Assembly (NCBI GenBank): GCA_051871715.1
Contig: JBJEDD010000068.1
Span: forward strand, 13,912-48,157
Direction: 5' to 3'
From: Muribaculaceae bacterium
GTDB lineage: Bacteria > Bacteroidota > Bacteroidia > Bacteroidales > Muribaculaceae
Length of the DNA: 34,246 nucleotides
Below the pieces are notes generated by a model. The model saw only the letters and a list, made by a program, of their open reading frames with translations. It was not told where the DNA came from and ran no database searches. This document shows, piece by piece, positions 4,002-34,246 of the stretch (its first letter is position 1; the number at the start of each line of letters is the position of its first letter). The position numbers and the translations under genes are program-made.

Positions 4002-4020
4002 AATATCAAGGTATTAGCGA

Positions 4021-5394: not shown

Positions 5395-5407
5395 AGGTGA
5401 GAATAGA

Positions 5408-7144: not shown

Positions 7145-7160
7145 CAGAGATTAAGGTGAA

Positions 7161-10256: not shown

Positions 10257-10291
10257 GCTATTTTAGGTTAGTTAGTAAAATTTTTCTGCCG

Positions 10292-10299
10292 CAAAGGTA
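10292..10299 (-). promoter_or_regulatory. -7 promoter element for the susC operon
   Basis: The + strand CAAAGGTA reads TACCTTTG on the - strand, 35 nt upstream of the susC ATG. Confidence 0.7.
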
Positions 10300-10341
10300 T
10301 AATAAGATGTAGCGCCACATTATAAATAATGGTGCAAAGGA

Positions 10342-10396
10342 TATAAAAAATCGGTAGATGCAGAAAAAGTAGCAGAAAAAGCCGAAAAATTCGGTA
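10342..10396 (-). promoter_or_regulatory. Candidate HTCS operator upstream of susC
   Basis: The - strand reads AATTTTTCGGC-N30-TTTTTTATA, the same sequence and spacing as at 13238-13287; also an AAAAA(A/T)TCGGTA direct repeat at 10345 and 10385. Confidence 0.5.
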
Positions 10397-13165: not shown

Positions 13166-13194
13166 GGATTGTAGGGTTGAATAAAAATTATTGG

Positions 13195-13202
13195 CAAAGG
13201 TA
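13195..13202 (-). promoter_or_regulatory. -7 promoter element for the HTCS gene
   Basis: The + strand CAAAGGTA reads TACCTTTG on the - strand, 29 nt upstream of ATG 13165. Confidence 0.7.
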
Positions 13203-13237
13203 ATGATTTTGTAAATAAATATTTTGAATTTCGTTGT

Positions 13238-13287
13238 AATTTTTCGGCAATGACGAAAAAATACCACCATTTGCAGACTTTTTTATA
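13238..13287 (+). promoter_or_regulatory. Candidate HTCS operator upstream of the GH32-permease-fructokinase operon
   Basis: AATTTTTCGGC (13238-13248), 30 nt, TTTTTTATA (13279-13287); matches the susC upstream element in sequence, spacing and orientation. Confidence 0.5.
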
Positions 13288-13309
13288 ACAGCATAGTCCT
13301 AATAATTAG

Positions 13310-13317
13310 TAGTTTTG
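13310..13317 (+). promoter_or_regulatory. -7 promoter element for the GH32 operon
   Basis: TAGTTTTG, 31 nt upstream of ATG 13349. Confidence 0.6.
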
Positions 13318-13348
13318 CAATGCGAAACGAAAAAACAATCTATTATCG

Positions 13349-15169: not shown

Positions 15170-15177
15170 AAATCTCC

Positions 15178-16362: not shown

Positions 16363-16383
16363 AAAACCTAAAACCGCACGACC

Positions 16384-17265
16384 ATGAATGATATCGTAAT
16401 AGGAATGGGCGAAGCCCTGTGGGACGTCCTCCCCGAAGGAAAGAAAATCGGTGGCGCACCCGCCAACTTTGCATACCATGTATCTCAATTCGGCTTGCCG
16501 AGTTGCGTAGTGAGCGCCGTAGGCGACGATGCCTTAGGTGCCGAAATAATTGAGAATTTCACATCCAAAGGTCTTAACCAACTGATAGAGAAGGTGCCCT
16601 ATCCTACCGGCACCGTGCAAATAGAAATCGACCAAGCCGGTATCCCGCAATACGAAATAAAGGAAAATGTGGCATGGGACAACATTCCCTACACCGCACG
16701 TCTCGAGCAACTCGCCGAGCGCACCAAGGCTGTGTGCTTCGGGTCGCTCGCCCAGCGCAATGTGGTGTCGCGCAACACCATCAATCGCTTTCTCGATGCC
16801 ATGCCTGCCGACAACGACCGCTTCGTGATATTTGATGTCAACCTGCGCCAAGGCTTCTATAACAAAGAAATATTGTGCAACTCTATGGAGCGATGCAACA
16901 TATTGAAAATCAACGATGAGGAGTTGATTACCGTGAGCCGCCTCTTCGGCTATCCGGGCATAGACTTGCAAGACAAGTGCTGGATCTTGCTGGGCAAGTA
17001 CAACTTGAAGATGCTCATCCTCACCTGCGGCATCAACGGCTCGTATGTTTTCACCCCGGGACACGTATCCTTCCGCCCCACCCCCAAGGTAGACGTTGTG
17101 GATACCGTGGGCGCCGGCGACTCGTTCACCGCAGCGTTCATCGCCGGCATCATCAAGGGCAAGAGCGTCGCCGAGGCACACCAACGCGCTGTCGACGTTG
17201 CAGCCTTCGTGTGCAAGCACAAAGGCGCAATGCCCATCCTTCCCGCTGAATTAGTTGAATGTTGA
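16384..17265 (+). CDS. PfkB-family carbohydrate kinase (fructokinase)
   Basis: GGAPANFA, VGDD.LG, FDVNLR, LKINDEE and DTVGAGDSF PfkB signatures; fructan-locus context. Confidence 0.92.
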   Translation: MNDIVIGMGEALWDVLPEGKKIGGAPANFAYHVSQFGLPSCVVSAVGDDALGAEIIENFTSKGLNQLIEKVPYPTGTVQIEIDQAGIPQYEIKENVAWDNIPYTARLEQLAERTKAVCFGSLAQRNVVSRNTINRFLDAMPADNDRFVIFDVNLRQGFYNKEILCNSMERCNILKINDEELITVSRLFGYPGIDLQDKCWILLGKYNLKMLILTCGINGSYVFTPGHVSFRPTPKVDVVDTVGAGDSFTAAFIAGIIKGKSVAEAHQRAVDVAAFVCKHKGAMPILPAELVEC

Positions 17266-17501: not shown

Positions 17502-18878
17502 ATGAAGAAATTAGACATCAGAGAGAAACAAAATATTGAATTCAAGGAGTCTTGGCGCGACGAATATCTTAAATGGGTTTGTGGTTTTGCAAACGCCCAA
17601 GGAGGGAAAATATACATAGGCGTAAATGACGACCAAGAGATAATAGGGGTAAACGACACCAAACGACTTATGGAAGATATTCCCAATAAGATAGTCTCAT
17701 TATTGGGAATAGTAGCAGATATTAATCTGTATGAATCTGAAGGACTTGAATATATTGAAATAGTAGTAAATCCCAGTAACGTTCCAATCTCATATAAAGG
17801 ACAGTATCATTATCGCTCAGGCTCAACAAAGCAAGAATTAAAGGGAGTAGCTTTGCAACAATTCATTCTGAAGAAGATGGGACAGTCTTGGGATGACATG
17901 CCTGTGCCATATGCTACTATAGAGGATATCGATCGCTCAGCAATAGATTACTTTCTTCGTCTCAGTCTTGCTTCCGGACGAATCAGTGAGGATGAAACCA
18001 ATTCATCTACTGAAGATGTATTAAAAAACCTTAACTTAATCACTCCTGATGGGGGTCTAAAAAGCGCTGCTATTCTTCTATTTGGCAAACAGGTTATCAA
18101 ATTTTTTCCATCAGCGGCATTTAAAATAGGTCGTTTCCACACGGACGAAAGCGACTTAATCATTCAAGATGTTGTTGATTGCAACATCATCCAAATGGCA
18201 AGCAGAGTAATGGATGTTCTCCGTTCTCGATACTTGGTCTCGCCAATCAGCTACGAAGGAATGCAACGTATTGAAAAACTGGAGATACCGGAGAAAGCCC
18301 TAAGAGAGTTGCTCTACAATGCAATAGTACACAAACAATACTCAGGTCCGGCAATATTGATGAGAGTGTTTGACAAAAGCGTAGAAATATGGAACTACGG
18401 ATTATTGCCTGAAGAACTCACTCCCGAAGATTTAATGAAAAGACATGCTTCTTATCCACGCAATCCAAATATAGCCTCGGTTTTTTACAAAGCGGGGTTT
18501 ATTGAAACATGGGGTCGTGGATACAAAAAGATATGCGATGAGTTTGAGAAAGCAGGTATACCTGTTCCAATAGTCGAAGAGAATGGAGGTGGTGTACGTG
18601 TAACAATACAAAGGAAAGCCAATGTTAGCAATACAGCAAATAGTGGCACTGTAAATGGCACTGTAAATGGCACTGTAAAACCTGCAAAAAGGTACGAAAC
18701 AATATGCAAACTACTCAAAGACAATCCCGGAATGACAATACGAAAGATCTCAGAGGAGCTGAATATATCCCAGAGAACCATCAAAAGAGACCTTGCTAAT
18801 ATGCAGAGAAACGGCATTATTTGCAGACAGGGTAGCGACAAAACCGGTGTTTGGGTCATTCTTTCGGATGCAGAGTGA
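17502..18878 (+). CDS. Schlafen/AlbA_2 domain + RecG-C (HATPase_c_4) + C-terminal HTH protein
   Basis: EKQNIEFKESW...VCGFANAQGGKIYIGVND (AlbA_2); YRSGST; ALRELLYNAIVHKQY...RNPNIA..F...IETWGRG (HATPase_c_4); terminal HTH ISEELNISQRTIKRDL...GSDKTGVW. Confidence 0.85.
   Translation: MKKLDIREKQNIEFKESWRDEYLKWVCGFANAQGGKIYIGVNDDQEIIGVNDTKRLMEDIPNKIVSLLGIVADINLYESEGLEYIEIVVNPSNVPISYKGQYHYRSGSTKQELKGVALQQFILKKMGQSWDDMPVPYATIEDIDRSAIDYFLRLSLASGRISEDETNSSTEDVLKNLNLITPDGGLKSAAILLFGKQVIKFFPSAAFKIGRFHTDESDLIIQDVVDCNIIQMASRVMDVLRSRYLVSPISYEGMQRIEKLEIPEKALRELLYNAIVHKQYSGPAILMRVFDKSVEIWNYGLLPEELTPEDLMKRHASYPRNPNIASVFYKAGFIETWGRGYKKICDEFEKAGIPVPIVEENGGGVRVTIQRKANVSNTANSGTVNGTVNGTVKPAKRYETICKLLKDNPGMTIRKISEELNISQRTIKRDLANMQRNGIICRQGSDKTGVWVILSDAE
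18644..18679 (+). repeat. 12-bp in-frame tandem repeat, 3 copies
   Basis: (TGGCACTGTAAA)x3 encodes GTVN-GTVN-GTVK in the linker before the HTH. Confidence 0.9.
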
Positions 18879-20239: not shown

Positions 20240-21577
20240 ATGATACAACGTATTATCACAGCAGTAATCCTCACCATAGGCATCATCATCGGCACAGCGG
20301 CACAAGCGCCTCGATGGCTCGAAAGCGATGCCTCGACAGCCATAGCATCGCGCATACGCGCGGATTTCCCCTTCACAGTCGAGCAATTCAAGGCACTGGC
20401 AGCGAGCCACGATGCCTCACTCACCTCGGAGGTCATCGACGAGATGATACTCAACAAATATGTTGAGACAATGGTCATTGATGACACTGTGCGCGTGTTC
20501 CGCAAGGCGCTGCGCAACCTCAACCTACTTGATCCATCGCGCAATGGCAAGCAGATACATCGCGGCGATGATGCCCGCGATGTCGATATCAGTTATGTTG
20601 ACTCTGTAATCGACTGGACTACAGGCGCCAACCCCTATGGAGGCGCCCACCGCGTGGAGTATGCTTTCATCATCGAAATACCCGGGCACCAAGCCCTTGC
20701 AGGCGACACAGTACGTGCATGGATGCCGGTGCCTATCACCTCGGCTCGCCAACGCGATGTAGCCATCACCTATACCTCTCAACCCGAATACATCCTCAGC
20801 ACCGGGCGCTCGGTGCACAACACCATATACTTTGAGGCGCCGGCGCCGGCACTCGGCGACACATTGCGATTGGAGTATCGCGGCTCATTTATCACCACCG
20901 GTCAGTTCTTCAGCGAAGATTACATCTTGGAGCACCTGCAGCCCTATGATACCACCTCGGAGACCTATCATCGCTACACCGTCACCGAGGCGCCACACAT
21001 CGTGCGACTGCCCGCTCTCGCCAACGCCATCGCCGGCACCGAGACCAACCCATATCGCCTGTCGGAGCGCGTATTTGACTTCATCAGCCACATCCTGTGG
21101 GCAGGGGCTCGCGAGTATAGCACCATCGACTGCATTCCCACCTATGTCCTCGAGCAAGGGCATGGCGACTGCGGGCAAGTGGCTCTGCTGTACATCTCAT
21201 TGATGCGCACCCTCGGCATCCCCGCTCGTTGGGAGAGCGGCTGGATGCTCCACCCGGGCGACAAGAACTTCCACGACTGGGCAGAAGTATACTTCGAGGG
21301 CGTGGGCTGGGTGCCCGTCGACCCCTCGTTCAGTAATTACAATCTCGCACCTCGCGTGGAGAGCCGCGGCTTCTATGGTCACGGCATGGACGCTCACCGA
21401 TTTGCCTCTAACACAGGTATTTGCGGCGAATTGTATCCTCCAAAGCAATTTGTACGCTCCGAAACCGTCGATTTCCAAGCCGGCGAGGTGGAGACCTCGC
21501 GTGGCAACCTCTTCTACCACGGCTGGAAGAGCACCCTTAAACTTATTAACGTAACACCTGTCAAAATAGAACCATGA
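20240..21577 (+). CDS. Exported transglutaminase-like (Cys-His-Asp) protein
   Basis: Signal peptide; GHGDCGQ, RTLGIPARWESGW, FHDWAEVYFEGVGWVPVDPS. Confidence 0.85.
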   Translation: MIQRIITAVILTIGIIIGTAAQAPRWLESDASTAIASRIRADFPFTVEQFKALAASHDASLTSEVIDEMILNKYVETMVIDDTVRVFRKALRNLNLLDPSRNGKQIHRGDDARDVDISYVDSVIDWTTGANPYGGAHRVEYAFIIEIPGHQALAGDTVRAWMPVPITSARQRDVAITYTSQPEYILSTGRSVHNTIYFEAPAPALGDTLRLEYRGSFITTGQFFSEDYILEHLQPYDTTSETYHRYTVTEAPHIVRLPALANAIAGTETNPYRLSERVFDFISHILWAGAREYSTIDCIPTYVLEQGHGDCGQVALLYISLMRTLGIPARWESGWMLHPGDKNFHDWAEVYFEGVGWVPVDPSFSNYNLAPRVESRGFYGHGMDAHRFASNTGICGELYPPKQFVRSETVDFQAGEVETSRGNLFYHGWKSTLKLINVTPVKIEP

Positions 21578-22728
21578 GATACTCAAGATTTTCAGCCATA
21601 TTGTTCGCAGTGATAATCGCTGCCGCACCGATGCTCGCTATCACCGGCGCCGAGGTGCTAAAAAAAGTTAAAAAGCAAGTTGCTCCCGACAGCCGTCAGG
21701 TGGTCTACGAATTGGAATTTGATGGTAGCACCGGTGCGACAGGGGTCCTGCGCGGTGTCACCTCCGAGGCATCGGCATTGCAAGCCACCGTCGACGTCCT
21801 CAATGCCGCCGGCATCGCCTTTGACAATCAAGCCGTCGCCTATCCGGCAGACAATTTCGGCTTGGTCACCATTCCGGTAGCCACCCTGCGCACACGCCCG
21901 GCACATGCCGGCGAGGTAGCCACGCAAGCCGTTTTGGGCACACCCGTGAGGATACTTGAAAACAAAAAAGGCTGGATGCGCATCCAGACACCCGACGGCT
22001 ATATCGCTTATGTGCCTGACAGTTCGATTGCATCAAAGTCCAAAGCCGAGATGCGTGCCTGGCAACGCGACACTACACGCGTGGTAGTCACCAACTTGCG
22101 CCAAGTTTACCTTACATCTACACCCGGGAGCAACAATCCTCGCCAATGTGTGAGCGAACTGTGTCTGAGTAGCATCGTGACCATTAAAGCCGATGCCGCT
22201 GCCGACTCGCTGTGGGTGTGCGTACAACTGCCCAATGGTCGCTACGGCTGGGCAGAGCGCTCCAACTTTACCCCCATCAATCAATGGGCTAACCAAGACC
22301 TCGACATTGACCTCATCCTCGACACCGCCTACTCGATGGAAGGCGCACCCTACCTGTGGGGCGGCACTTCCAACAAGTGCACCGACTGCTCGGGCTTGGT
22401 AAAAATAAGTTACCTCAACAACGGCATTATCCTGCGCCGCGATGCCTCGCAACAAGCCCTCACCGGACAGCGCCTCGGCACCGATTGGGCTGAATATGAG
22501 GCAGGCGACTTGCTATTCTTCGGCGACGCCGCCAAGGGCAAAGTGACCCATGTGGGCATCTACGACAGCGACAGCCGATATATCCACTGCTCGGGACGCG
22601 TGAAGCGCAACAGCCTTGACCCCTCGGCAAGCGACTACCTGTATTCGACACTGTGGGCAGTGCGCATCCGCGGCAAAGTGGGCACCAACGGCATCACTCG
22701 CGTTGCCGACCATCCTTGGTTCTTTTGA
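21574..22728 (+). CDS. NlpC/P60 (C40) peptidase with SH3b domains, YkfC-like gamma-D-Glu-diamino acid endopeptidase
   Basis: Signal peptide; TQAVLGTPVRIL...WMRIQTPDGYIAYV (SH3b); PYLWGG, DCSG, RDASQQ, GDLLFF, THVGIY; ATGA overlap with the upstream gene; adjacent to an epimerase. Confidence 0.88.
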   Translation: MRYSRFSAILFAVIIAAAPMLAITGAEVLKKVKKQVAPDSRQVVYELEFDGSTGATGVLRGVTSEASALQATVDVLNAAGIAFDNQAVAYPADNFGLVTIPVATLRTRPAHAGEVATQAVLGTPVRILENKKGWMRIQTPDGYIAYVPDSSIASKSKAEMRAWQRDTTRVVVTNLRQVYLTSTPGSNNPRQCVSELCLSSIVTIKADAAADSLWVCVQLPNGRYGWAERSNFTPINQWANQDLDIDLILDTAYSMEGAPYLWGGTSNKCTDCSGLVKISYLNNGIILRRDASQQALTGQRLGTDWAEYEAGDLLFFGDAAKGKVTHVGIYDSDSRYIHCSGRVKRNSLDPSASDYLYSTLWAVRIRGKVGTNGITRVADHPWFF

Positions 22729-22764
22729 TACCCAACCATTTAACAATCTATAACCTACCCCAAT

Positions 22765-23895
22765 ATGAATCGCAGAAACTTTCTCAAGACATCGGCATTA
22801 GGGCTGGCGTTTGCCGCCTCACCTATCTCGATGTCGGCGCTCGACAGCCCTACTCGCACCACCACTCGCTCGGGCCGTCTCAACCTCTCGTTTGAGCCTT
22901 ACGAACTCAAACTGCGCCACTCGTTCAATCTCGCTCGCTCGCAACGCACCACCACGCCCGACGTGCAAGTGCAATTGGAATACGACGGCATCATCGGCTA
23001 TGGCGAGGCATCAATGCCTCCCTACCTGGGCGAGAGCGTCGAGTCAGTGACCAAATTTCTCTCGAGTCTCGACTTGGCTCAGTTCTCCGACCCCTTCCGC
23101 ATCGAAGATATCCACGCATATATGGACAGCATCGCCGACGCCAACCGCGCAGCCAAGGCTTCGGTCGACATCGCCCTCCATGACCTCTTGGGCAAAATCA
23201 TGGGGCAACCGTGGTACAAAATTTGGGGACTCAACCCCGATAATACCCCAAACACCTCATTCACAATCTCATACGACGCCGACCCAGCCGAGATGAAAGC
23301 AAAAATCGACGAAACGGCGCCATTCAAGGTTGTCAAAGTGAAGATGGGCGTCGGACATGACAAGGAGACCGTCGAAGCCCTGCGCCAACACAGCGATGTC
23401 GCTATCTGCGTGGATGCCAACCAAGGCTGGACCGACAAAAATCATGCTCTGGAGATGTGCAACTGGCTCGCCGAGCGCAATTGCCTCTTTGTGGAGCAAC
23501 CGATGCCCAAGGAAATGATTGACGAAACGGCATGGCTACGAGAGCGCTCGCCCCTGCCACTCATCGCCGACGAATTCCTGCAGCGTCTCCCCGACGTGGC
23601 ACGCGCTGCCGGCGCATATGACGGCATTAATATCAAATTGATGAAGAGCACCGGCATGCATGAGGCTTACCAAATGGCTACCCTCGCTCGTGCCATGGGT
23701 ATGAAGGTGATGCTCGGTTGCATGACCGAGACCTCCTGCGCTGTCACTGCCGCCGCTCAACTCTCGCCTATGGTCGACTGGGCTGACCTCGATGGCAACC
23801 TCCTCATCGCCAACGACCGCTTCGACGGCATTAAAATTGTTGATGGAAAGGTCACTATTCCCGACCGCCCCGGCATCGGTGTCGAACTAATTTGA
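22765..23895 (+). CDS. L-Ala-D/L-Glu (dipeptide) epimerase, enolase superfamily, with Tat-type signal (YkfB-like)
   Basis: MNRRNFLK twin-arginine signal; GYGE, DIALHDL, KVKMG, VDANQGW, EQP, ADE, NIKLMK, GCM.E and DLD motifs. Confidence 0.9.
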   Translation: MNRRNFLKTSALGLAFAASPISMSALDSPTRTTTRSGRLNLSFEPYELKLRHSFNLARSQRTTTPDVQVQLEYDGIIGYGEASMPPYLGESVESVTKFLSSLDLAQFSDPFRIEDIHAYMDSIADANRAAKASVDIALHDLLGKIMGQPWYKIWGLNPDNTPNTSFTISYDADPAEMKAKIDETAPFKVVKVKMGVGHDKETVEALRQHSDVAICVDANQGWTDKNHALEMCNWLAERNCLFVEQPMPKEMIDETAWLRERSPLPLIADEFLQRLPDVARAAGAYDGINIKLMKSTGMHEAYQMATLARAMGMKVMLGCMTETSCAVTAAAQLSPMVDWADLDGNLLIANDRFDGIKIVDGKVTIPDRPGIGVELI

Positions 23896-24184: not shown

Positions 24185-24231
24185 AAATGAACTGCATCTC
24201 GCCACCGGTGGGATGCAGTTCATTTTTTGTT
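24185..24231 (+). terminator. Rho-independent terminator after rpmH
   Basis: AAATGAACTGCATC...GATGCAGTTCATTT stem, extended by G-U pairs, running into TTTTTTGTT. Confidence 0.85.
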
Positions 24232-24278: not shown

Positions 24279-24298
24279 CATTATATAATAATGTGCTT

Positions 24299-25414
24299 AT
24301 GGAACAGCAAAAAAACGACCAAAAATACCAATACCAACAACACCAAGAATACCGTCAACAACACTTGAGCAATGGGGTCTCGATGCAAGCAGGCAACATA
24401 TGCGCCAACTGCGGGTCTGCCGTAGAGCCGGGAGCACGCTTCTGCGCCGAATGTGGAGCACCACAAGGCTCCGGCAATGAGTGTCCCAACTGCCACAGCG
24501 CCTTACAGCCCAACCATGTAATATGCCCGGTGTGCGGTGTCCCGTGCAGCACCATATGCACATTCTGCGGCTCTGAAATGTCCGTGGGTGAGGCTTTTTG
24601 CCCCGACTGTGGCAATGCACGCGCCGGCATCACATGTCCCGACTGCGGCACCCTCAACTACCGCTCTTTCTGTCGCAAGTGCAACCGCCCGCTCAACCCC
24701 ATGGCAATGTACGCCCTGGAGCGCATCAAGGACAACCCCCACATGCAGCGTGCCGCCAAACTCAACGAGGAAATATCACAAATAGAGGACGAGATACAGC
24801 GCCTCGAGCAAGAGTTGGCTACCTTGCCTCCCGAGCCCGAAGAACCACCATATGACCCCTTCGGCGGCGCCATTGACACCTCACGAACACAGTCGGCAGG
24901 CACACAAAGCCTTATGGAACAATTTGCCCGCCTATCGGGCAACACCACAGTACAACAGCCTGTGCAGCAAGCCCCCAAGCCTCAGCAGCAACAAACCAAG
25001 GCACCGTCGTTAACCCTCCAATCGCCCGGCGGACCTGTCGGCGGCGACATCCCGGCAGCCAAAGCACCCACTCAGCGCAAGCGCCCCCAAGCCATGCGAC
25101 TCGAGCAACTCAAGGCGCAGTACAGCAGCAAGATGGAAGAATTCCAGAAAGAACTTGACGCTATAGTTCCCGACCCCAACGACCCGCCCGAAATCAAGCG
25201 CAACATTGCATGCGCCATTAAGTATAGTATGTCCTACTCTACCACCACCATCAAGAAGGACCCACGTATGTATTGGATATGCAACGAGTGTCACATCAAG
25301 CACAACAATCCATCGGAATGTGGCGTAAGAGAATACGGTGGTAAATGGGTAAAGGAAACCATCACGACTATCATCACGACCGACCATAAAGTGGACGGCT
25401 CTATCAACTTATAA
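24299..25414 (+). CDS. Multi-zinc-ribbon (DZR-type) protein with coiled coils and P/Q-rich linker
   Basis: ATG 24299 (GTG 24293 also possible); eight CxxC pairs (CANC, CAEC, CPNC, CPVC, CTFC, CPDC, CPDC, CRKC); heptad LNEEISQIEDEIQRLEQEL; C-terminal CNECHIKHNNPSEC. Confidence 0.85.
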   Translation: MEQQKNDQKYQYQQHQEYRQQHLSNGVSMQAGNICANCGSAVEPGARFCAECGAPQGSGNECPNCHSALQPNHVICPVCGVPCSTICTFCGSEMSVGEAFCPDCGNARAGITCPDCGTLNYRSFCRKCNRPLNPMAMYALERIKDNPHMQRAAKLNEEISQIEDEIQRLEQELATLPPEPEEPPYDPFGGAIDTSRTQSAGTQSLMEQFARLSGNTTVQQPVQQAPKPQQQQTKAPSLTLQSPGGPVGGDIPAAKAPTQRKRPQAMRLEQLKAQYSSKMEEFQKELDAIVPDPNDPPEIKRNIACAIKYSMSYSTTTIKKDPRMYWICNECHIKHNNPSECGVREYGGKWVKETITTIITTDHKVDGSINL

Positions 25415-25435: not shown

Positions 25436-28400
25436 ATGAGCAAGACAGGAACATCAGTAGCCGGAGACGGTCAAATGCCCCAAGGGGCACAAAATCCGGC
25501 AACTCCCGGTGGCACATCAATAGCCGGCGGCACAGGTACCGCAGTTGCCGGCGGAACCGGCACTTCTGTTGCCGGCAATGGCACCGGCACCGCAGTTGCA
25601 GGCGGTGGCGCCAACCCTCAAGCAGCCGCCAACCAAAGCGGTATTCCCGAATTACCCGAATACATAATCAACGGGCACAGATTTACCAAGGTCAAAGCCC
25701 TCGGTGTCCCCTCGGGCGAAGGGCGTGTCTTCGTCGTCGAAAACGGTGGCAACCAATTTGCCCTCAAGATATATCGCGCCGGACACACCCCCGACACCGC
25801 CGTCCTCGATGCCGTGAAGAAGGCGGGCGGCGGCTTCATGGTGTATCTGCGCGAACACGGTGCATGGGTTAATCCCACACCTCCCGGGCTCGCACACTAC
25901 TTCGAATTGATGGACTTCTGCCCCTACGGCTCTCTGGGCGACATCCGCATCCGCACCGACGAGGAATTCAAAGCCATCGCCACCGGCATGGCATTCTGCA
26001 TCAAGCAGTGCCACGATAACGGCTTTATCCACCGAGACATCAAGCCCGAAAACTTCCTCATGACCGTGCCGCAGATCGACCCCAATGCCAAGTCCACGGT
26101 GCAATTCGTCGTCAGCGACTTCGGCATCGGACGCCTCATGGGAGGCAAAAAAAACATCATCACCGACCTCGGCAAGACCGGTCGCTACGCCTCGCCCGAG
26201 GCTTGCTACTCGAGCAACAACGTCACTGTCGAGATGGGCTTCCCCACCGACTATTACTCAATGGGACTCACCCTGCTCGCTATGTGTATCGGTGTCAACA
26301 CCTTCCCCATTGTGTGCAAGGACAGCGAATTGGACAACTACAAGCGCCTCGGCACCGTGATGGAGCAACTCGGTCCGATGATTCGCCTCAGCGACTACAG
26401 CAAATCTCTGCTTGCCGCCCTGTTGGAGAATAACCCCGACGACCGCGCCGACTTCAAAGCCATCCAAGAGTGGATTGCCGGCAAGACCTTGAAGACCAAG
26501 CAACAAGCCGCTGCCGACGCTGCCAATGCATTCAAATATGTATTTGACGACTCCACAAACAAGATCGCTCACTCGACCGAAGAGCTCGCCGAACTCATGA
26601 TGACCGACATCGAGTATGCCAAGCGCGAACTCTACCGCGGCGCTATCGTCCGCGGACTCGAACGCCTCGGTCGTGCTCGCATTGCCGGCGACATCGACAA
26701 TATCGTCACCAATGTTTACAAGCAGGAAAGTGAGAAGGAAGTAGGCGTTTATGCCGCCTGCCTGTGCCTCGACCAGTCGATGCCCTTCATCGACCGCGAC
26801 GGCAAGGAGTGCCGCACCGTCACCGAGATTGCCGATGCCTTGTGGCGCAACCGCTCGTTCTACGCCACCGACCTCAAGAACTCGGCATCGCGCCTGTGGG
26901 CTTACCTCCAAGCCCGTGGCGATGACAACCTCAAGAAATTTGCCGGTATCTACCGCCCGATGATCGTCAAGAGCGGTCAACACGGCGTATATGCCCTGTG
27001 CAAGGCGCTTAAGCCCGGTATGCCCTACTACAACCCCAAGGGCGCTACTATGGTCGCTCCCAAGGATATAGCCGAGGACCTTTGGAATCTCCGCAATACT
27101 TACTCAAAGGACCTCGCCGACCCCAACCACTCGCTGTGGACCTTCCTCAAGGGGCTCGGTGCTAACGGTGCCAAACTCGCCAAAGACTATCCCTCACGCA
27201 TCAACGACCACGGCGAATATGCCCTGTATGGTCTCTGTCTATCCCTCGACGAGGAAACGCCCTTCTATGCCAAGAACGGCAACAAGTGCTACGACGTAAG
27301 CGAGATTGCCCAAGAACTCTGGGACCTCGACTCTGATTATAAGAAGGAGGTCATCGACCCGATGCACCCCCTGTGGACCTATATGCGCTCGTGGCACGAT
27401 GACGAGTGGACTCGCATCGCCAATGAGTATCCGCAGAAAATCAAGGACCGCCCCGCAGTGTGGTTCTACGAACTCATCTACCGCATGGATCCCACCAAGC
27501 CTTACCTTGTGAAATTTGTGGACGATGAGAAGTGGCACCATATCAACAACTTCAATGCCCTTAAAACCGAACTTTATAAGCACGGCATCCACGACGCTTC
27601 GCTCTCGCTGTTGTGCGAAGCCGACTTCGTCACATGGCTCACCGTGCAGTCCGACCCCAAGGTCGCTCAGCGTGGCGCTCTGCTGGAGAAACTCGCCAAG
27701 CAATTAGGCTCCAATGCCTCCAAAAACGGCTGGTATCTCCTCTACAGCATCATCCCCGAGTTATCGTTGACCTTGCAGACCGACACCAAGGCTACCGACT
27801 ACATTGCCACCAACGAGCAAATCGGCAATGCCCTGTGTCAACAAATCAACACCGGCAAGTACATCTCCAACGCTGTTGGTGCCAAGATTGACCTCATCGC
27901 CACATTCAAGGACCCATCGGCATTCAAGGGCTCGCGATTGGAGCAATTCATGAATGCTCGCAAGATGGGCAACTATATCAACGGCATCCTCTCAATCATC
28001 GATGTCAACCATTGCATCGCCCAGCACAAATCCGCCCCCTACGACGGTTTCACCGCACGCTGGAAAGTCGTTGATTACCTGGGAGGTAAGCTCAAATATG
28101 TAACCGCCGCCGGCAAGGAAATTACCGACCCGCGCCAACTCGCCAACCTCCCCTCGGGCGAGGTATCCAACGAGGTGAGCCGCGGCTTGCCGCAGTTCTG
28201 CTCGTTGTGGTTCCACGAGGGCAAGGGCAAGTCTTTCTCTATCAAGGACTTGACTTCTTACCACAACTTCCTCAACAAGTACATCCCCACAGCCTACAAT
28301 ATGCGCCAATCAGCGTCGATGCGCAGCCAATTGCTCGACAAAATCGACGAGCGCAACCGCGCATGGAACGCACTGGGCAATATCCGCAAGTGGGTGATGA

Positions 28401-29305
28401 TTCTGTGCCTCGTGCCTATGATAGGCATTGTCACTTGGATGATTATCCTCACCTTCACCTCCGGTACGGGCATGATTTCGAGCGCTGTTGAGGCTGTTGG
28501 TGGCGTCGTTGCCGTCATCATGGCTATCGGTGGCGCCCTCGCCGGTCTCTCCGGAGGCATCGTCGGTGCCGTCCTCGGTGGCTTGGCGGGCTACTGGCTT
28601 ACCGTGCTGATTTTCTGGCTACTCAGCGCCATAGCGCCCATCCTCTTAGCGTTATTGGCAATCGTCGGTGCCGTCTACTTCATCGTTAGACTCAACAAGT
28701 TCACCTCCGACACTTATATTTCTTCCGAGGACGAATACAACAAGTTGTACGACCAAGCCAACACCTACATCGTGTGCCACGGCTTGGGTACCGCATCTCG
28801 CACCTTCGGCAGCAATAATATCGACCCGACTCAGACCTTCCAAAGTTCAATCAACCTCGCTGCCTCGCAGAAGAAGGATACCGTGAAGGCTGCTGTCGGC
28901 ATGGTAATCCTCACCATCGTGACACTCGGGCTCGGCTTGCTCTTTGCCGGTGCTTTCTCCAATAGCGACAAGTACGCTTATGAAGATACTGAGGAAGTTA
29001 TCGAATGTATGGCAGATGACCCCATTGACCTTCTCGCCGGCTCATATACCGGTACGCTCAAGGGCAAGGACGCTTCGCTCACTATCACCAGGGCCTCAGG
29101 TGTTTACCCATTGGAAGCAACAGTCACTTGCGGCTCAAAAACTTACAATTGCCAAGGCAAAACCGAGGGCTCAACTGTTATATTATATGTGAATGGTGTC
29201 GCCGATAACCGCTTCAAAGGTGAATTGGCAAACAACGTTTACTCGGGCGACTATCAGCCTTACACCGGAGCCGCTCGTCAACAATTTGAATTTACCAAAC
29301 TATGA
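25436..29305 (+). CDS. Membrane-anchored Hanks-type Ser/Thr protein kinase with N-terminal Gly/Thr repeats and ~80-aa internal repeats
   Basis: SGEGRV loop, FALKIY, HRDIKPEN, SDFG, YASPE, DYYSMG; repeated Y.LC..L....PF/Y...IA..LW...LW.YL units; several hydrophobic helices near the C-terminus, then a small beta-rich domain. Confidence 0.9.
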   Translation: MSKTGTSVAGDGQMPQGAQNPATPGGTSIAGGTGTAVAGGTGTSVAGNGTGTAVAGGGANPQAAANQSGIPELPEYIINGHRFTKVKALGVPSGEGRVFVVENGGNQFALKIYRAGHTPDTAVLDAVKKAGGGFMVYLREHGAWVNPTPPGLAHYFELMDFCPYGSLGDIRIRTDEEFKAIATGMAFCIKQCHDNGFIHRDIKPENFLMTVPQIDPNAKSTVQFVVSDFGIGRLMGGKKNIITDLGKTGRYASPEACYSSNNVTVEMGFPTDYYSMGLTLLAMCIGVNTFPIVCKDSELDNYKRLGTVMEQLGPMIRLSDYSKSLLAALLENNPDDRADFKAIQEWIAGKTLKTKQQAAADAANAFKYVFDDSTNKIAHSTEELAELMMTDIEYAKRELYRGAIVRGLERLGRARIAGDIDNIVTNVYKQESEKEVGVYAACLCLDQSMPFIDRDGKECRTVTEIADALWRNRSFYATDLKNSASRLWAYLQARGDDNLKKFAGIYRPMIVKSGQHGVYALCKALKPGMPYYNPKGATMVAPKDIAEDLWNLRNTYSKDLADPNHSLWTFLKGLGANGAKLAKDYPSRINDHGEYALYGLCLSLDEETPFYAKNGNKCYDVSEIAQELWDLDSDYKKEVIDPMHPLWTYMRSWHDDEWTRIANEYPQKIKDRPAVWFYELIYRMDPTKPYLVKFVDDEKWHHINNFNALKTELYKHGIHDASLSLLCEADFVTWLTVQSDPKVAQRGALLEKLAKQLGSNASKNGWYLLYSIIPELSLTLQTDTKATDYIATNEQIGNALCQQINTGKYISNAVGAKIDLIATFKDPSAFKGSRLEQFMNARKMGNYINGILSIIDVNHCIAQHKSAPYDGFTARWKVVDYLGGKLKYVTAAGKEITDPRQLANLPSGEVSNEVSRGLPQFCSLWFHEGKGKSFSIKDLTSYHNFLNKYIPTAYNMRQSASMRSQLLDKIDERNRAWNALGNIRKWVMILCLVPMIGIVTWMIILTFTSGTGMISSAVEAVGGVVAVIMAIGGALAGLSGGIVGAVLGGLAGYWLTVLIFWLLSAIAPILLALLAIVGAVYFIVRLNKFTSDTYISSEDEYNKLYDQANTYIVCHGLGTASRTFGSNNIDPTQTFQSSINLAASQKKDTVKAAVGMVILTIVTLGLGLLFAGAFSNSDKYAYEDTEEVIECMADDPIDLLAGSYTGTLKGKDASLTITRASGVYPLEATVTCGSKTYNCQGKTEGSTVILYVNGVADNRFKGELANNVYSGDYQPYTGAARQQFEFTKL
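25448..25606 (+). repeat. Five GT(S/A)(V/I)AG peptide repeats in the kinase N-tail
   Basis: GTSVAG, GTSIAG, GTAVAG, GTSVAG, GTAVAG; codons differ between copies. Confidence 0.85.
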
Positions 29306-32300
29306 AATGCGTAAAATGTAACCGCGACAACCGCGACAAAGCCAAGTTCTGCAAGTATTGCGGCTCATCGCTGGCAGCCGGCAAACCCGGCTCGCCGGGC
29401 TTGGACACCATCATAGGAAAGCGCGACGCCGCCGAGTGGCTCCGCGCCACTATCGCCAGCGCCGAGGCTATCAAGCGCCAAGGACAGCAACAGGGCAGCG
29501 ACATGCGTGCCCGCCTGTGCTTCGCTATCACCGGCGTCTCGGGCTGCGGCAAGTCGTTCCTTGCCAAGGCTTTCGCCGCAGAGATGTTCCGCGCAGGCAT
29601 CACCGACCGCCCCGATGCAACCGTCATAAAATCCGCCGATTACAACAAATTTGTTGAGAAACTCGACGACAATATCAAGCCCATCAAGGGCAATGTACTC
29701 GTCATCGATGAGGCTCAAAAACTTTGTCCCGCCACTCGCGCCGACTCGGTCACCGAACTCGACAGTGTGCTCCAGCGCTGCCGTGATTGGTGCGACGACA
29801 CCGACAAGCCCATCGTCCTCTTCCTCGGCGACGAGCAACTCACTTCGTTCTTCGAGAACAACCCCGCCGCTCGCGCCATGATTCTGGACCTCATTGAGCT
29901 CCCCAAGCCCACCATAGAGGACGTCACCGCCATCGCTGTCGCCGAATTCCAAAATCTCGGCTTCACCGTGCCCCAGGACACCGCAGCCAAGATTTCGCGC
30001 GTCATCACCGCCACCAAGCGCCGCGACATCGACAAGTTTGACTACGGTCACTGCGCCCGCGATATGGCTTACGACGTATTCTCCCGACAAGCCGCCAACG
30101 GCATCGGCACCGTCACCCCCGAAATGATTGAAGGTGAGGAATTTATACCCAAAACTCTCGACGAGGTGATGAAGAGTTTCGACAAGTACGTCGGCGTCGA
30201 GGATATCAAGAACGCCATCCGCGAGATTGCACAAGCAGCCGACGATGCTCGCAGCAAGGGCTTGGCACCCAACGAGGTAGTCCAAAATCACTACGTATTC
30301 AAGGGCAACCCCGGCACCGGCAAGACCACCATGGCGCGCCTCTTCGCTGAGGCGCTCCAGGCTATGGGCGTACTCTCAAGCGGTCACATCGTCGAAGTCG
30401 ACCGCGAGAAACTCGTCTCCAACTATGTGGGCGACACCCCCAAGTTGGTGCGCAAAGCCGTCAACGATGCCCTCGGAGGTGTCCTCTTCATCGACGAGGC
30501 TTATGCCCTCTGGCGCGACAAAGATGACAAGGAGGGGCAACAAGTCGTCGACACACTCCTCAAGGACTGCGAAGACCTCCGTGGCAAGTTCGTCTGCCTC
30601 ATCGCCGGCTACCCCGTCGAGATGGACCGCTTCCTCGGCTCCAATCCCGGCTTACCTCGCCGCTTCAACAAGACTATCATCTTCCGCGATTACACCGGTC
30701 CCGAGCTTACTCAAATATTCCGCAACATGGCTACCGGTGGCAAGAATCCCGTAAAACTCGGCGACGACGTCGAGCAACAAATCGGCGCTTTCTTCGACAA
30801 GATTTACCTCACTCGCACCAAGCGATTTGGCAACGCCGGAACCGTGCGCAACATCCTCACCGATGCCATCGACCGAATGCGCAAACGTATCCAGAAAGCC
30901 AAGGACGACGGTACTTTCCGTCCCGAAGACGACAATGTGCTCATCATGGCTGACCTACAGGAGGACGAAGCCAAGACAGTAGACCAAATCCTCAACTCCT
31001 TTGACGACCTCGTCGGTATGAGCGATGTCAAGGAGCAAATCCGCTCCATCGCTCGCTCGGTCGAGATGCAACAGAAGTTGGTAGAGCTGGGTATCGGCGA
31101 GAGCAGTGTTACCAACATCCACATCATCCTCACCGGCAACCCAGGCACCGGCAAGACCACCGTGGCTATGCGGCTCGGACAAGTCTTCAAGGCTATGGGC
31201 GTCATTCCCACCGACCGCGTGGTTGTCAAGAAGAGCGAAGATATCTTTGACTCCTACAAGAACTCTGCCGGTCCCAACATGACCCAAGCTGTCGACGATG
31301 CCATGGGCGGCGTGCTCTTTATCGATGAGGCTTACAACCTCCTGCCCATGCGTGCTCCCGGGCAAGTCGACCAAGACGGCTCCGAGGCTATCGCCGCGCT
31401 CATGACTTGCATGAGCGAACGCGCCGGACAATTCATCACCGTCATCGCCGGTTACAAGACCGAAATCGACGAATTTATCCGAAACGCAAACCCCGGATTG
31501 GCGCGCCGCTTCACCCATCGCATCCACATCCCCGATTACTCTGCCGCCGACCTCACCACCATCTTCCTACAACAAGTCTCTAAGGCTAAGATGAAAATCA
31601 CCGAGGACGCCCAGAAACTCTTGGAACGCAAAATCGAGGAACTCGTCACCGCCAAGGACGAAAAATTCGGCAACGCCGGCACTATCGTCAACCTTTTCAA
31701 GGAGGCAAAAGATAAGCACTTCAACAACGTAACTACCAACGACGAGGTCGAGCGCCTCATCACCTTCTATCCCGAGGACATCCCCTACGACGCCCCCAAG
31801 CGCCTGGATATGGACGAGATTATGGCTAAACTCGACCACCTCGAGGGCTTGCAAGGTGTCAAGACCGCTATTCGCGACTTAGCCGACACTCTGCTCACCC
31901 TCCAGGCTCGCGCCGCCGATTCGGGCGAAAAAGCATCTATCAACCTCGACCACTACCTGTTCCTCGGCAACCCCGGCACCGGCAAGACCACCGTGGCGCG
32001 CATTATGGGCGACATATTCTACTCCCTCGGTCTGCTACCCTCCAACAAGGTCATCGAACTCTCTGCCAAGGACCTCAAAGCTCCTTACATTGGGCAGACC
32101 GCTCCTCTCGCCCACGCCGCCATGATGCGTGGCATGGGTGGCGTAGTGTTCATCGACGAGGCTTACTCTATCACTCAAGGTGAAGGCGAAAGCGGCTTCG
32201 GCAAGGAAGCCGTCTCCGAGATACTCCAAGTTATGGAGAACTACATGAATAAGTTCATAACCATCGCCGCCGGGTATCCTCGCGAGATGGCTGAATGGCT

Positions 32301-32625
32301 CGATAGCAACTCCGGTTTGTCGTGGCGTTTTACTGCCACTATCACCTTTGAGGATTACAACGCCGACGAACTCTCGCGCATCGCCGCCAATATGTTTGAG
32401 AAGAAAAACCTCAAAATCATGGACGCTGCCTTCACCGCCATGCACAACTACTTCGTGAAACTCACCACCCACAAGAGCCGCAACTTCGCCAACGCTCGCG
32501 AGGCGCGCAACTTCGTGGACAAGGTGCTCATCAACCAGGGCCGTCGACTGCGCCAAGAAATGAAGTTGCCCGACTTCGACCGCAACCGTTTCTACATCCT
32601 CGAGCCCTCGGATATGCAAGTCTAA
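29302..32625 (+). CDS. AAA+ ATPase with N-terminal zinc ribbon and four tandem CbbX/SpoVK/EccA-like AAA modules
   Basis: CVKC/CKYC; Walker A GVSGCGKS (29533) and GNPGTGKT (30304, 31135, 31966); Walker B VIDEA and FIDEAY x3; IAGY, NPGL.RRF and FGNAG/FANAR motifs; ATGA overlap with the kinase. Confidence 0.9.
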   Translation: MKCVKCNRDNRDKAKFCKYCGSSLAAGKPGSPGLDTIIGKRDAAEWLRATIASAEAIKRQGQQQGSDMRARLCFAITGVSGCGKSFLAKAFAAEMFRAGITDRPDATVIKSADYNKFVEKLDDNIKPIKGNVLVIDEAQKLCPATRADSVTELDSVLQRCRDWCDDTDKPIVLFLGDEQLTSFFENNPAARAMILDLIELPKPTIEDVTAIAVAEFQNLGFTVPQDTAAKISRVITATKRRDIDKFDYGHCARDMAYDVFSRQAANGIGTVTPEMIEGEEFIPKTLDEVMKSFDKYVGVEDIKNAIREIAQAADDARSKGLAPNEVVQNHYVFKGNPGTGKTTMARLFAEALQAMGVLSSGHIVEVDREKLVSNYVGDTPKLVRKAVNDALGGVLFIDEAYALWRDKDDKEGQQVVDTLLKDCEDLRGKFVCLIAGYPVEMDRFLGSNPGLPRRFNKTIIFRDYTGPELTQIFRNMATGGKNPVKLGDDVEQQIGAFFDKIYLTRTKRFGNAGTVRNILTDAIDRMRKRIQKAKDDGTFRPEDDNVLIMADLQEDEAKTVDQILNSFDDLVGMSDVKEQIRSIARSVEMQQKLVELGIGESSVTNIHIILTGNPGTGKTTVAMRLGQVFKAMGVIPTDRVVVKKSEDIFDSYKNSAGPNMTQAVDDAMGGVLFIDEAYNLLPMRAPGQVDQDGSEAIAALMTCMSERAGQFITVIAGYKTEIDEFIRNANPGLARRFTHRIHIPDYSAADLTTIFLQQVSKAKMKITEDAQKLLERKIEELVTAKDEKFGNAGTIVNLFKEAKDKHFNNVTTNDEVERLITFYPEDIPYDAPKRLDMDEIMAKLDHLEGLQGVKTAIRDLADTLLTLQARAADSGEKASINLDHYLFLGNPGTGKTTVARIMGDIFYSLGLLPSNKVIELSAKDLKAPYIGQTAPLAHAAMMRGMGGVVFIDEAYSITQGEGESGFGKEAVSEILQVMENYMNKFITIAAGYPREMAEWLDSNSGLSWRFTATITFEDYNADELSRIAANMFEKKNLKIMDAAFTAMHNYFVKLTTHKSRNFANAREARNFVDKVLINQGRRLRQEMKLPDFDRNRFYILEPSDMQV

Positions 32626-32646
32626 CCCACTCACCCCTCAACTGAT

Positions 32647-33360
32647 ATGGCAACACTCACCCCCTGCCCACACTGCAACGCTGACATTGAGAACGACAGC
32701 GTATTCTGCGACCAATGCGGCGCCGAGTTGCTCCAATGCCCCAAGTGTGGCAAATATCGCAAAGGCAAATTCTGCACCGAGTGTGGCTGCCCCACCGGCA
32801 AGCCATCAGGTGCCCCGGCTCAGCCTCAACAACCCACGCAACAGCCCGATAAACAAACTACTCAACAGCCTGTACAACAACCTCAGGCTCCGCAATATAT
32901 CGGACAACCTGTGCAGCCTCAGCAACCTGTGCAGCAACCTCAGGCTCCGCAATATATCGGACAGCCTATCCAACAGCCAATGGCTCGCCCCACGACAAAT
33001 CCCCCTATGGGTGGCACTTCAATCGCCGGTGGCGTCCCTGCCGGCGGCACATCGGTCGCCGGTGGCGCCCTTCCATCGCGTCTATCCTGCCACACCTACG
33101 GCATTGTCCTCACCCTGCAACCCGGCGCTATCCTGGGCCGCGTCAATGGCAACTATGTCGCCCAATTGAGCAGCCTCAACTTCATCTCCGGCACCCATGG
33201 GCGTTTCGATTCCACTCCCTCAGGTTGGACTTTCACCGACCTCGGTTCTACCAACGGCACTATGGTTAACGGTGCTCCTTGTATTCCTCACGTCCCACAG
33301 CCCCTGCATATCGGCGATGTGGTGCGTATCGGCAAAACTTATGACTTTTATGTAGAATAA
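32647..33360 (+). CDS. Double zinc ribbon + P/Q linker + FHA domain protein
   Basis: CPHC, CDQC, CPKC, CTEC; FHA signatures ILGR, ISGTHG, DLGSTNGT, GDVVRIG. Confidence 0.9.
   Translation: MATLTPCPHCNADIENDSVFCDQCGAELLQCPKCGKYRKGKFCTECGCPTGKPSGAPAQPQQPTQQPDKQTTQQPVQQPQAPQYIGQPVQPQQPVQQPQAPQYIGQPIQQPMARPTTNPPMGGTSIAGGVPAGGTSVAGGALPSRLSCHTYGIVLTLQPGAILGRVNGNYVAQLSSLNFISGTHGRFDSTPSGWTFTDLGSTNGTMVNGAPCIPHVPQPLHIGDVVRIGKTYDFYVE
32878..32963 (+). repeat. Direct repeat (29-nt exact core, 57-nt period) in the FHA protein linker
   Basis: CAACCTCAGGCTCCGCAATATATCGGACA at 32878 and 32935; QQPVQQPQAPQYIGQP occurs twice. Confidence 0.9.
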
Positions 33361-33362
33361 TT

Positions 33363-34246
33363 ATGAAATTCAGATACGACGTAGTGAGCGACGTGGGTCG
33401 TGCGCGCTCCAACAACGAAGATATGGCATTGGTATTCGGCGCTTTCGTCCGCGACGGCAGCAATGCCTCTATGGTCAAGATGGACTCCCGTCCGCGCTTC
33501 ACAGCCATCGTCGCCGACGGCATGGGCGGATATGGCGGCGGCGAAATCGCCTCCGAAATGACCCTCCGCTCTTTCAATCAGTTCATTCTCAACCTCCCTG
33601 CCGGGCTCGACGAGACCGACCTCCGTGTCGCTCTCAACAACTGGCTCGAAGCGCATCAAAATGCCATCTTCGCCGAGCAGACCAAGCCCGGTCTCGCACA
33701 GATGGGTACCACCCTCACCGGCATATTCACCTACGAGGACCGCGAATACATCATCAATGCAGGCGACTCGCGCGTTTATCGCTGGCGATACGGCGACTTG
33801 CGCCAACTCACTGTCGACCACAGCGAGCGCGAGCGCCTCAAGGACCCCACTGTGCCGTCCAACCTCATCTACAACGCCATTGGCGTGCCCAACGCATTCA
33901 TCACCATCACCCCGATGGTCGAGAAATACGCCATCGTCGACGGCGACCGCTACATCATCTGCTCCGACGGCTTGTGCGATATGATTGACGATGATGCCAT
34001 TGCTGCAATCCTCACCCAAAACGGCAACGCTCGCCAATTGGTCGACGCTGCCCTCAATGCCGGTGGTCTCGACAACTGCACAGTCATCGTCCTTGACGTA
34101 TCCAAGCCCGCCGAAGAGCCCGCTCCCGAGCAAGTCGAGCAGCAACCCGCCGAGCCCGAGACCAAGCCCGCCGAGCCGCTCACCCCGCCGGTTGAGCAGG
34201 CTACCGCACCACTCACCCGCGAAGAATTGGTCGCTCAAGAGGCTCC
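33363..34246 (+). CDS. PP2C/PPM-family Ser/Thr phosphatase (3' end outside window)
   Basis: Absent from the ORF track because it has no stop; manual translation MKFRYDVVSDVGRARSNNED...VADGMGG...MGTT...NAGDSRVY...LTVDHS...ICSDGL...GGLDNCTV, then a P/E-rich linker. Confidence 0.92.
   Translation, partial: MKFRYDVVSDVGRARSNNEDMALVFGAFVRDGSNASMVKMDSRPRFTAIVADGMGGYGGGEIASEMTLRSFNQFILNLPAGLDETDLRVALNNWLEAHQNAIFAEQTKPGLAQMGTTLTGIFTYEDREYIINAGDSRVYRWRYGDLRQLTVDHSERERLKDPTVPSNLIYNAIGVPNAFITITPMVEKYAIVDGDRYIICSDGLCDMIDDDAIAAILTQNGNARQLVDAALNAGGLDNCTVIVLDVSKPAEEPAPEQVEQQPAEPETKPAEPLTPPVEQATAPLTREELVAQEA

Follow-up and report, generated by a model that had tools for sequence, protein, structure and literature searches.

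According to the published account (PMC8546545), PknG has a disordered N-terminal extension in which several autophosphorylated threonines serve as anchors for the FHA domain of GarA/OdhI, a substrate that is phosphorylated on a Thr as well. In type VI secretion systems (T6SS), the PpkA-Fha1-PppA pathway is reported to comprise an autophosphorylating kinase, an FHA protein that both binds the kinase's phosphothreonine (pThr) and serves as its substrate, a phosphatase, and an association with the ATPase ClpV (PMC13584744). ArnA of Sulfolobus is described as a zinc finger, a disordered linker, and an FHA domain that binds several phospho-threonines (PMC12852372, PMC6509490). This study concerns an operon that recalls these systems, found in a Muribaculaceae bacterium (GenBank assembly GCA_051871715.1, contig JBJEDD010000068.1, positions 13,912 to 48,157). 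This whole stretch of 34,246 nucleotides is called the window; all positions below are numbered from its first letter, and all features with coordinates lie on the forward (+) strand. The operon has five co-directional genes, for a zinc-ribbon protein, a membrane kinase, a multi-AAA ATPase, a zinc-ribbon-FHA protein, and a PP2C phosphatase, a layout conserved in Bacteroidota. As described for PknG, the operon kinase has a disordered N-terminal tail with multiple Thr sites, whose phosphorylation is predicted. The operon shares with the T6SS pathway a kinase, an FHA protein, a phosphatase, and an ATPase, known here from the genes, and its FHA protein has the zinc finger-linker-FHA layout reported for ArnA.

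The kinase tail and the FHA protein carry the same short Thr-centered peptide. On the evidence of the sequences, this motif is real, selected at the peptide level, and co-evolving in the kinase and the FHA protein. In the reading favored here, to which we give a probability of roughly 55%, the shared peptide is a co-evolving linear motif that would serve as a private pThr docking tag for the FHA protein, whose own copy would be optional and bound mainly in trans. This study contributes a tree-controlled test of the co-variation and a codon test, and it describes the FHA copy as optional and a clade in which Ser replaces the motif Thr.

The shared motif in the kinase tail and the FHA protein

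The kinase gene (25436..29305; 1289 aa, Hanks-type Ser/Thr kinase, Pfam Pkinase) opens with a 75-residue tail that holds five repeats and is like the multi-Thr N-terminal extension of PknG. The initial annotation had reported the motif GT[SA][VI]AG five times in this tail and twice before the FHA domain, and had described the octamer GGTSIAGG as identical in the two proteins; both statements were confirmed on the open reading frames (ORFs) and the DNA. The kinase copies, all within the first 57 residues, are TGTSVAG (Thr6, 25445..25465), GGTSIAGG (Thr27, 25508..25531), TGTAVAGG (Thr35, 25532..25555), TGTSVAG (Thr43, 25556..25576), and TGTAVAGG (Thr52, 25583..25606). The FHA gene (32647..33360; 237 aa, Pfam DZR and FHA) encodes a zinc ribbon, a Pro-Gln linker, and the FHA domain. 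Its first copy is GGTSIAGG (Thr124, 33010..33033), the same peptide as kinase copy 2, with the FHA domain 21 residues further on; its second is GGTSVAGG (Thr135, 33043..33066), with the domain 10 residues further on. A third Thr motif in the linker, PTTNPP (32989..33006), is possibly a relic of the neighboring T-x-hydrophobic-P variant; PT[TS]xP occurs in 19 of the 45 closest FHA homologs versus 2 of 75 more distant ones.

The motif is rare in the genome. Across 4,708 six-frame ORFs, which total 1.107 M aa, GT[SA][VI]AG matches 8 times, and the kinase and the FHA protein account for 7 of these matches; in 1.95 M aa of stop-to-stop frames there are 9 matches, where composition predicts 1.2. When a profile of the five kinase copies was run over the genome's 55,743 Thr windows, the two FHA copies ranked first and second among the non-training windows (27.2 and 26.6; next 26.0). 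The genome contains 10 Hanks-kinase ORFs in total, and the window motif is in none of the other nine; several of these carry Thr motifs (ETQPL, ETEKL, KTVPI, ETLPI) directly after the kinase domain.

The shared octamer is encoded by GGT GGC ACA TCA ATA GCC GGC GGC in the kinase gene and by GGT GGC ACT TCA ATC GCC GGT GGC in the FHA gene, with three synonymous differences. From such differing codons the initial annotation had proposed selection on the peptide, and a larger comparison bears this out: matching kinase/FHA residues have the same codon in 59 of 139 cases versus 58.5 expected. Since codon identity is at chance level, the match is kept by selection on the peptide and not by DNA copying, and copying between the kinase and FHA genes was rejected as its source.

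Co-variation across related loci

Because the FHA protein was the entry point to every related locus, kinases without an FHA partner are invisible to this survey. In 98 loci a single kinase stood with a single short FHA ORF. L073, L130, and L166 were dropped (kinase start not located), and L141 and L142 (broken FHA frames) and kinase-less loci were left out. Dereplication at 90% kinase identity gave 56 loci, and removal of L071, whose tail is cut at the contig end, gave the 55 loci used below. In these, nearly all kinase tails are tandem arrays, with a median of 5 copies and up to 11, and at least 3 copies are present in 49 of 55; the motif center is Thr 266 times and Ser 18 times.

The repeat unit varies between lineages, and its variant usually recurs in the cognate FHA protein. 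Kinase/FHA pairs include TGTAIPS/TGTALPP (L111), GGTIRPG/GATVRPG (L072), DKTLRPG/EKTMRPG (L033), EKTIGTRR/GKTIGGRRK (L025), KIGKSGTGKG/KIGHSGTGKG (L125), EGSLKP/EASLKP (L066), and DKTVRL with a C-terminal DKTVRI (L160). For 28 of the 55 tail profiles, which were derived automatically, the linker or C-tail of the cognate FHA protein scored within the top decile (5.5 expected; permutation test, mean 14.4 versus 7.65 ± 0.62). Control regions, which are equally co-inherited, reached the top decile in 4/52 (DZR), 2/53 (PP2C), 5/55 (AAA), and 8/55 (kinase C-terminal part) cases, and no enrichment of motif copies was seen in the DZR, AAA, or PP2C proteins of the 55 loci by tail-profile scoring.

Because related loci are not independent, a test on 27 edge-disjoint pairs was used, on trees built without the motifs. 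The concatenated tree gave 20 positive and 5 negative pairs (p=0.002), and the kinase tree, the FHA tree, and IQ-TREE gave 18/8, 21/4, and 20/6; none of the control regions was significant in the same pair test. The initial annotation had set co-variation of the motif in orthologous kinase/FHA pairs as a check in advance, and these results show that it is present. By motif class, 37 of 55 FHA proteins share the class of their kinase (null mean 12.4, maximum 21), one differs (L125, a near-identical decamer that was misclassified), and 17 have no class motif; the FHA class switches four times on the tree, on the same branches as the kinase class, and these counts are to be read with classes that were defined after the data were seen.

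A group of six loci (L098, L118, L119, L124, L126, L127) has Trp-containing tail repeats (WG.x.PQESTT, WG.x.PQKSDT), mostly with DWG for DFG in the kinase; the FHA linkers of these loci are short and without a motif copy.

The kinase and the FHA domain

The kinase consists of the Thr-repeat N-tail, the kinase domain, a helical repeat region, and predicted membrane segments. Its catalytic motifs are intact (ALK, HRDIKPEN, DFG, SPE), and HxD[IV]KPxN is present in 53/55 kinases. The P+1 loop differs by lineage: KTGRYASPE in the window, and KSGYFVSPE/KSSYFVSPE or RTPxYAAPE in other lineages. The middle region (26501..28315) is a repeated helical unit modeled with a mean pLDDT of 94.5 by AlphaFold2. 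The window copy matched no Pfam family, TPR families included, and the region had no sequence match in the PDB and no Foldseek match at E<=0.001; the best Z in a wide search was 7.2, and these searches argue for neither a known fold nor a novel one. Hydropathy indicates four hydrophobic segments at aa 987-1170.

The FHA domain has the FHA beta-sandwich fold: Pfam PF00498 is above the cut-off, and the model matches solved FHA domains, including FHA-phosphopeptide complexes. In the AlphaFold model, the linker has a pLDDT of about 55 and the FHA domain above 95; phosphate cannot be modeled, and the model has no bearing on closure. In the pocket, G164, R165, and S181 are invariant and H184 and N203 are at least 90% conserved among 83 homologs; across the 55 loci, GR is found in 55/55, SxxH in 54/55, and SxNG in 54/55. 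A complex prediction of FHA aa 140-237 with kinase tail aa 20-60, which was unphosphorylated and made with no alignment, scored 0.00 and carries no weight either way.

The FHA protein's own copy

The copy in the FHA protein has been gained or lost about seven times on the tree, and was lost even between close sisters (L030/L150 versus L149). Where it precedes the domain, its Thr lies a median of 12 residues before the first FHA strand (range 9-30), and the distance is at most 14 in 21 of 30 cases. In 7 loci the motif stands at the C-terminus of the FHA protein, 7-20 residues past the domain, and such relocation is a behavior open to a linear motif.

The termini of an FHA domain lie on the face opposite the pocket, and we estimate from this topology that a minimum of about 12-13 residues is required to fold back. 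Thus, Thr124 could reach the pocket of its own molecule, whereas Thr135 probably could not. For DgcB, in which the spacing is 18 residues, both modes are reported as possible and binding is apparently mostly intermolecular (PMC6733907); Mdc1 and TIFA are reported to bind in trans (PMC3351161, PMC7083832), and phosphorylation of the Rv1747 linker is reported to lead to oligomers and phase separation (PMC8339232). Given that the own copy is absent in 17/55 loci and usually sits about 12 residues from the domain, binding between molecules is favored: trans binding is somewhat more likely than closure of the GarA type, and Thr124 could do either.

The Ser clade, split operons, and genomes without the kinase

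In L066, Ser replaces Thr in all six tail repeats and in the FHA copy, and the FHA protein is the only one of 55 with Cys in place of the conserved Asn of the pocket. The Cys is also found in three close relatives of this FHA protein, in which the motif is SSLKP, APLKP, or missing; the next relatives have T-[IV]-R-P together with Asn. Two other FHA proteins, P0043 and P0131, have Tyr for Asn and keep the Thr motif, so that the link between Ser and the pocket is not a rule. The Ser clade represents one evolutionary event, and the Ser/Cys coupling is best taken as a lead.

Four genomes of the genus hold a split operon (L175-L178 with L115, L136, L137, and L143), in which the DZR and kinase genes, followed by the AAA gene where the contig reaches that far, are on one contig, and the FHA and PP2C genes are on another, behind a 1,500-aa gene. 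Repeats of the GGTAIAGG type make up the tails of these kinases, whereas their FHA proteins are without a motif. A single clade of these kinases with the window kinase was rejected (approximately unbiased (AU) test, p=0.00016), and their P+1 loop is different; monophyly of the FHA proteins with that of the window was not rejected (p=0.08). The idea that the FHA protein loses its motif when the kinase is lost had been considered and was dropped, as in L115, L136, L137, and L143 the operon proved to be split, the kinase lying on a different contig. Two genomes of one lineage, G348 (L123) and G394 (L122), which are 95% and 98% complete, have the AAA and FHA genes, no match to the kinase middle region, and no motif in the FHA linker. 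They form the only lineage that gave no kinase match (the L076 record was left out), which is too little for a rule of motif loss.

Genomic setting of the operon

A terminator-like hairpin (24185..24225), recognized by a consensus scan only as a 19-pair stem with a T-run, divides the upstream gene from the operon. Gene 1 (24293..25414) encodes a double-zinc-ribbon protein (Pfam DZR) without a motif copy. The kinase gene is followed by that for the multi-AAA ATPase (29302..32625), which is SpoVK/CbbX/EccA-like (TIGR02881, TIGR02880, and TIGR03922 above cut-off) and has an N-terminal zinc ribbon and four Walker A/B pairs; it is a candidate output of the operon. In distant relatives (L151, L152, L154-L165) the AAA protein is larger: it reaches 1,300-2,500 aa and contains as many as 7 Walker A motifs. 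Downstream of the FHA gene, a PP2C-family Ser/Thr phosphatase gene (33363..34246; Pfam PP2C, with the NF033484 score below cut-off) extends beyond the window; in the contig it crosses an assembly gap and encodes 403 aa.

The FHA gene is patchily distributed. Counting the window's own genome at each level, it is found in 32/158 genomes of the genus, in 35/401 of the family (E<=1e-12; 22 of these at E<=1e-22), in 6/401 of the order, and in 5/301 of the phylum; it is also found in 11/101 genomes of one distant family. A plasmid search with the operon gave no match, and viral contigs gave weak domain-level matches only. Parts of the operon are spanned by contigs of relatives (for the most part 90-95% alike) from two pig-gut metatranscriptomes of a single study; as there was no silent-stretch control, these contigs do not establish transcription. 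A literature search found no paper on this operon or on kinase/FHA co-variation, although the supplements of one bacterial kinase atlas preprint, whose main text does not contain the term 'Bacteroid', might list the family. Kinase-PP2C associations other than this operon are reported in PMC7159879.

Accessory genes recur beside or inside the operon in L023-L030, L069, L098, L117-L128, L139, L140, L146, and L154. They encode a Sel1-repeat protein (12 loci), an unannotated 270-aa family (13), DUF1963 (8), a response regulator (8), two unannotated membrane-protein families (7 loci each), and, in one gene, SMI1/KNR4. SMI1/KNR4 and similar families are immunity-like, and such neighbors may hint at a role of the operon in conflict. 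The remainder of the window includes a polysaccharide utilization locus, probably for fructan (2472-17265; SusC/SusD, two GH32, a hybrid two-component system, an MFS transporter, and a PfkB kinase), an AlbA_2/RecG-C/HTH protein (17502-18878; local GC about 47% versus about 55%), and transglutaminase-like, SH3-NlpC/P60, and enolase-superfamily genes (20240-23895), a cluster that we take to resemble one for peptidoglycan-peptide recycling. Outside the window, contig C222 of the same genome carries a second cassette of zinc-ribbon/FHA-like, kinase-FHA, FHA-membrane, PP2C, FHA, and kinase genes.

Discussion

From the intact FHA pocket, the Thr bias of the motif, and the PknG precedent, we infer autophosphorylation of the kinase tail and recruitment of the FHA protein to it. 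By analogy with PknG/GarA, the membrane kinase would autophosphorylate its repeated N-tail, and the FHA protein of the operon would then dock on the array of tail sites. Docking of the FHA domain on the phosphorylated tail, a step that the favored reading has in common with one of its alternatives (closure, discussed below), is probable. With less assurance, the docked FHA protein may be phosphorylated on its own copy, which would be an optional second-tier site; in most lineages this copy is probably too near the domain to fold back and may be bound by another FHA molecule to form a dimer or chain, as in Mdc1 and TIFA. Such dimers or chains may concentrate zinc ribbons at the membrane, the PP2C phosphatase would reset the system, and the multi-AAA ATPase and the zinc-ribbon protein are its likely downstream partners through a putative link.

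The initial annotation had proposed a similar scheme, in which the phosphorylated tail is a multivalent landing pad and phosphorylation of the FHA protein's own copies causes self-closure and release from the kinase. Its first part is in keeping with the peptide-level selection, the co-variation, the intact kinase and pThr pocket, and the PknG/GarA precedent. The closing step is weakened by the absence of the own copy in 17/55 loci, by the median spacing of 12, and by the presence of at least three repeats in 49/55 kinase tails; that scheme had also counted lack of the motif in one partner against itself, and such a lack is found in about one third of the loci. As an alternative to trans binding, closure into the molecule's own pocket is possible, if unlikely, and accepts the same docking. 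GarA/OdhI self-recognition is reported as established, the DgcB model is reported to permit cis binding across 18 residues, the distance from Thr124 to the domain is 21 residues, and among the 30 N-side copies 9 have a distance above 14; against this, the distance is 14 or less in the other 21, and sister loci differ in having the copy at all. The spacing thus argues against GarA/OdhI-type intramolecular closure in most loci.

It is less likely again that the motif is only the substrate or pseudosubstrate consensus of the kinase and that the FHA domain reads another site. Co-variation would be predicted in this case too, and the P+1 loop does differ between lineages; however, kinases that differ in their P+1 loops can carry the same variant, no copies are present in the remaining three proteins of the operon, and the sole Ser lineage has altered its FHA pocket as well. 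The strong bias for Thr over Ser fits an FHA reader, because FHA domains are reported to need the Thr methyl group (PMC3146460). The peptide could also be read without phosphorylation, or by the AAA ATPase, the PP2C phosphatase, or the zinc ribbons, for example as a tag for remodeling or dephosphorylation, which we consider improbable. The FHA homolog P0123 has APLKP at the motif position, the unphosphorylated DgcB tail is reported to bind the FHA cleft in crystals, and two related genomes keep the AAA and FHA genes with no kinase found. These same two genomes are, however, also without the motif, and elsewhere the Thr is near-invariant and the phosphate-binding residues are intact. Least probable is an origin by chance in Gly/Ala/Thr-rich low-complexity sequence, or by copying of DNA from one gene to the other. 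The two regions are indeed Gly-rich and disordered, and repeat number fluctuates (5 in the window, 4 in L020), but the motif is rare genome-wide, a composition-preserving shuffle gave p=0.003 (the floor of 300 shuffles), and the co-variation spans unrelated compositions (DKTIR, HATGK) with codon identity at chance level; chance and copying are largely refuted.

Several results weigh against the docking-tag reading with trans binding. With an alternative best-pair score the pair test is weaker, at 17/7 (p=0.03), 16/9 on the kinase tree (p=0.11), 19/5, and 17/8 with IQ-TREE (p=0.054), with p ranging from 0.003 to 0.11. The motif classes, besides being post hoc, involve only about four deep class switches, and the FHA proteins without a class motif include those of all 6 PQ(E/K)S loci. 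No pocket residue tracks the motif variant cleanly: a last-loop Lys is common to both GTAIAG lineages, but Arg is found instead in P0002, P0004, and L142, so that a single pocket residue as predictor of the variant is suggestive only. The pT+3 position is Ala here and Pro in many relatives, where DgcB is described as having a large hydrophobic residue (Val), and P0123 has Pro at the acceptor position. The argument for trans over cis binding is an estimate of the geometry based on general FHA topology and not a computation on coordinates.

A bolder proposal, which we regard as doubtful, extends the docking-tag reading to a bacterial signalosome whose private code diverges fast. The phospho-repeat tail would nucleate TIFA-like head-to-tail polymers of zinc-ribbon-FHA protein at the membrane and so switch on the giant multi-AAA machine; the variants would insulate versions of the operon that move between genera, and the L066 FHA domain would be rewired to phosphoserine or to unphosphorylated peptide.

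Sites that link kinases to FHA domains are normally matched by phosphoproteomics, and here the likely site can be read from the sequence. The lineages provide a natural panel of matched variants (GTSIAG, GTAIPP, KTIRP/KTVRL, KTIG/TGKA, SLKP, PQESTT), which opens a cognate versus non-cognate comparison of how kinase, linear motif, and FHA pocket evolve together. In the L066 clade there is a concrete candidate for an exception to the pThr specificity of FHA domains, and the motif offers a mutational handle on the operon through T-to-A and pocket mutants. The surprise is limited, since PknG/GarA had already provided the basic chemistry.

The operon differs in several respects from each of its described counterparts. 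PknG is described as having a TPR domain, for which the operon kinase gave no Pfam match, and a poorly conserved tail, and the account in PMC8546545 mentions no tandem repeat matching a substrate site; the operon kinase has predicted membrane segments, and its tail tandemly repeats copies of a motif that co-varies with that of the FHA protein. GarA/OdhI are described with an ETTS motif, whereas in the operon FHA protein ETTS is absent and the features present are a zinc ribbon and GGTS[IV]AGG. The operon also adds a multi-AAA ATPase, and no link to 2-oxoglutarate dehydrogenase was seen. Unlike the T6SS pathway, the operon has an ATPase that is SpoVK/CbbX/EccA-like and not ClpV, and its neighbors in the window are metabolic genes; no T6SS genes were recognized among the recurring flanking ORFs of the 55 loci by BLAST clustering, with 13 ORFs checked in Pfam. 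The partner of ArnA is reported to be a vWA protein, ArnB, with its sites on a helix bundle, whereas the operon sites are on the kinase itself, and a Pfam search found no vWA domain in the five operon proteins. TIFA, Mdc1, DgcB, and Rv1747 resemble the operon FHA protein in having a Thr motif near their own FHA domain, which is reported to be bound between molecules to give dimers, oligomers, or condensates; the accounts of them describe no kinase tail that repeats the same motif and no lineage-specific co-evolving variants. The similarity to the TerY-phosphorylation triad, MADS6, MkoA, and PD-T4-6 is confined to the kinase domain (partial PADLOC/NCBIfam matches far below cut-off), with no vWA/TerY here; PADLOC 2.0 gave only partial matches to the kinase and AAA domains and none for DZR, FHA, or PP2C.

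In sum, the analogy suggests that the operon works like PknG/GarA and PpkA-Fha1-PppA, yet by its gene content and motifs it belongs to neither of these systems nor to ArnA-ArnB.

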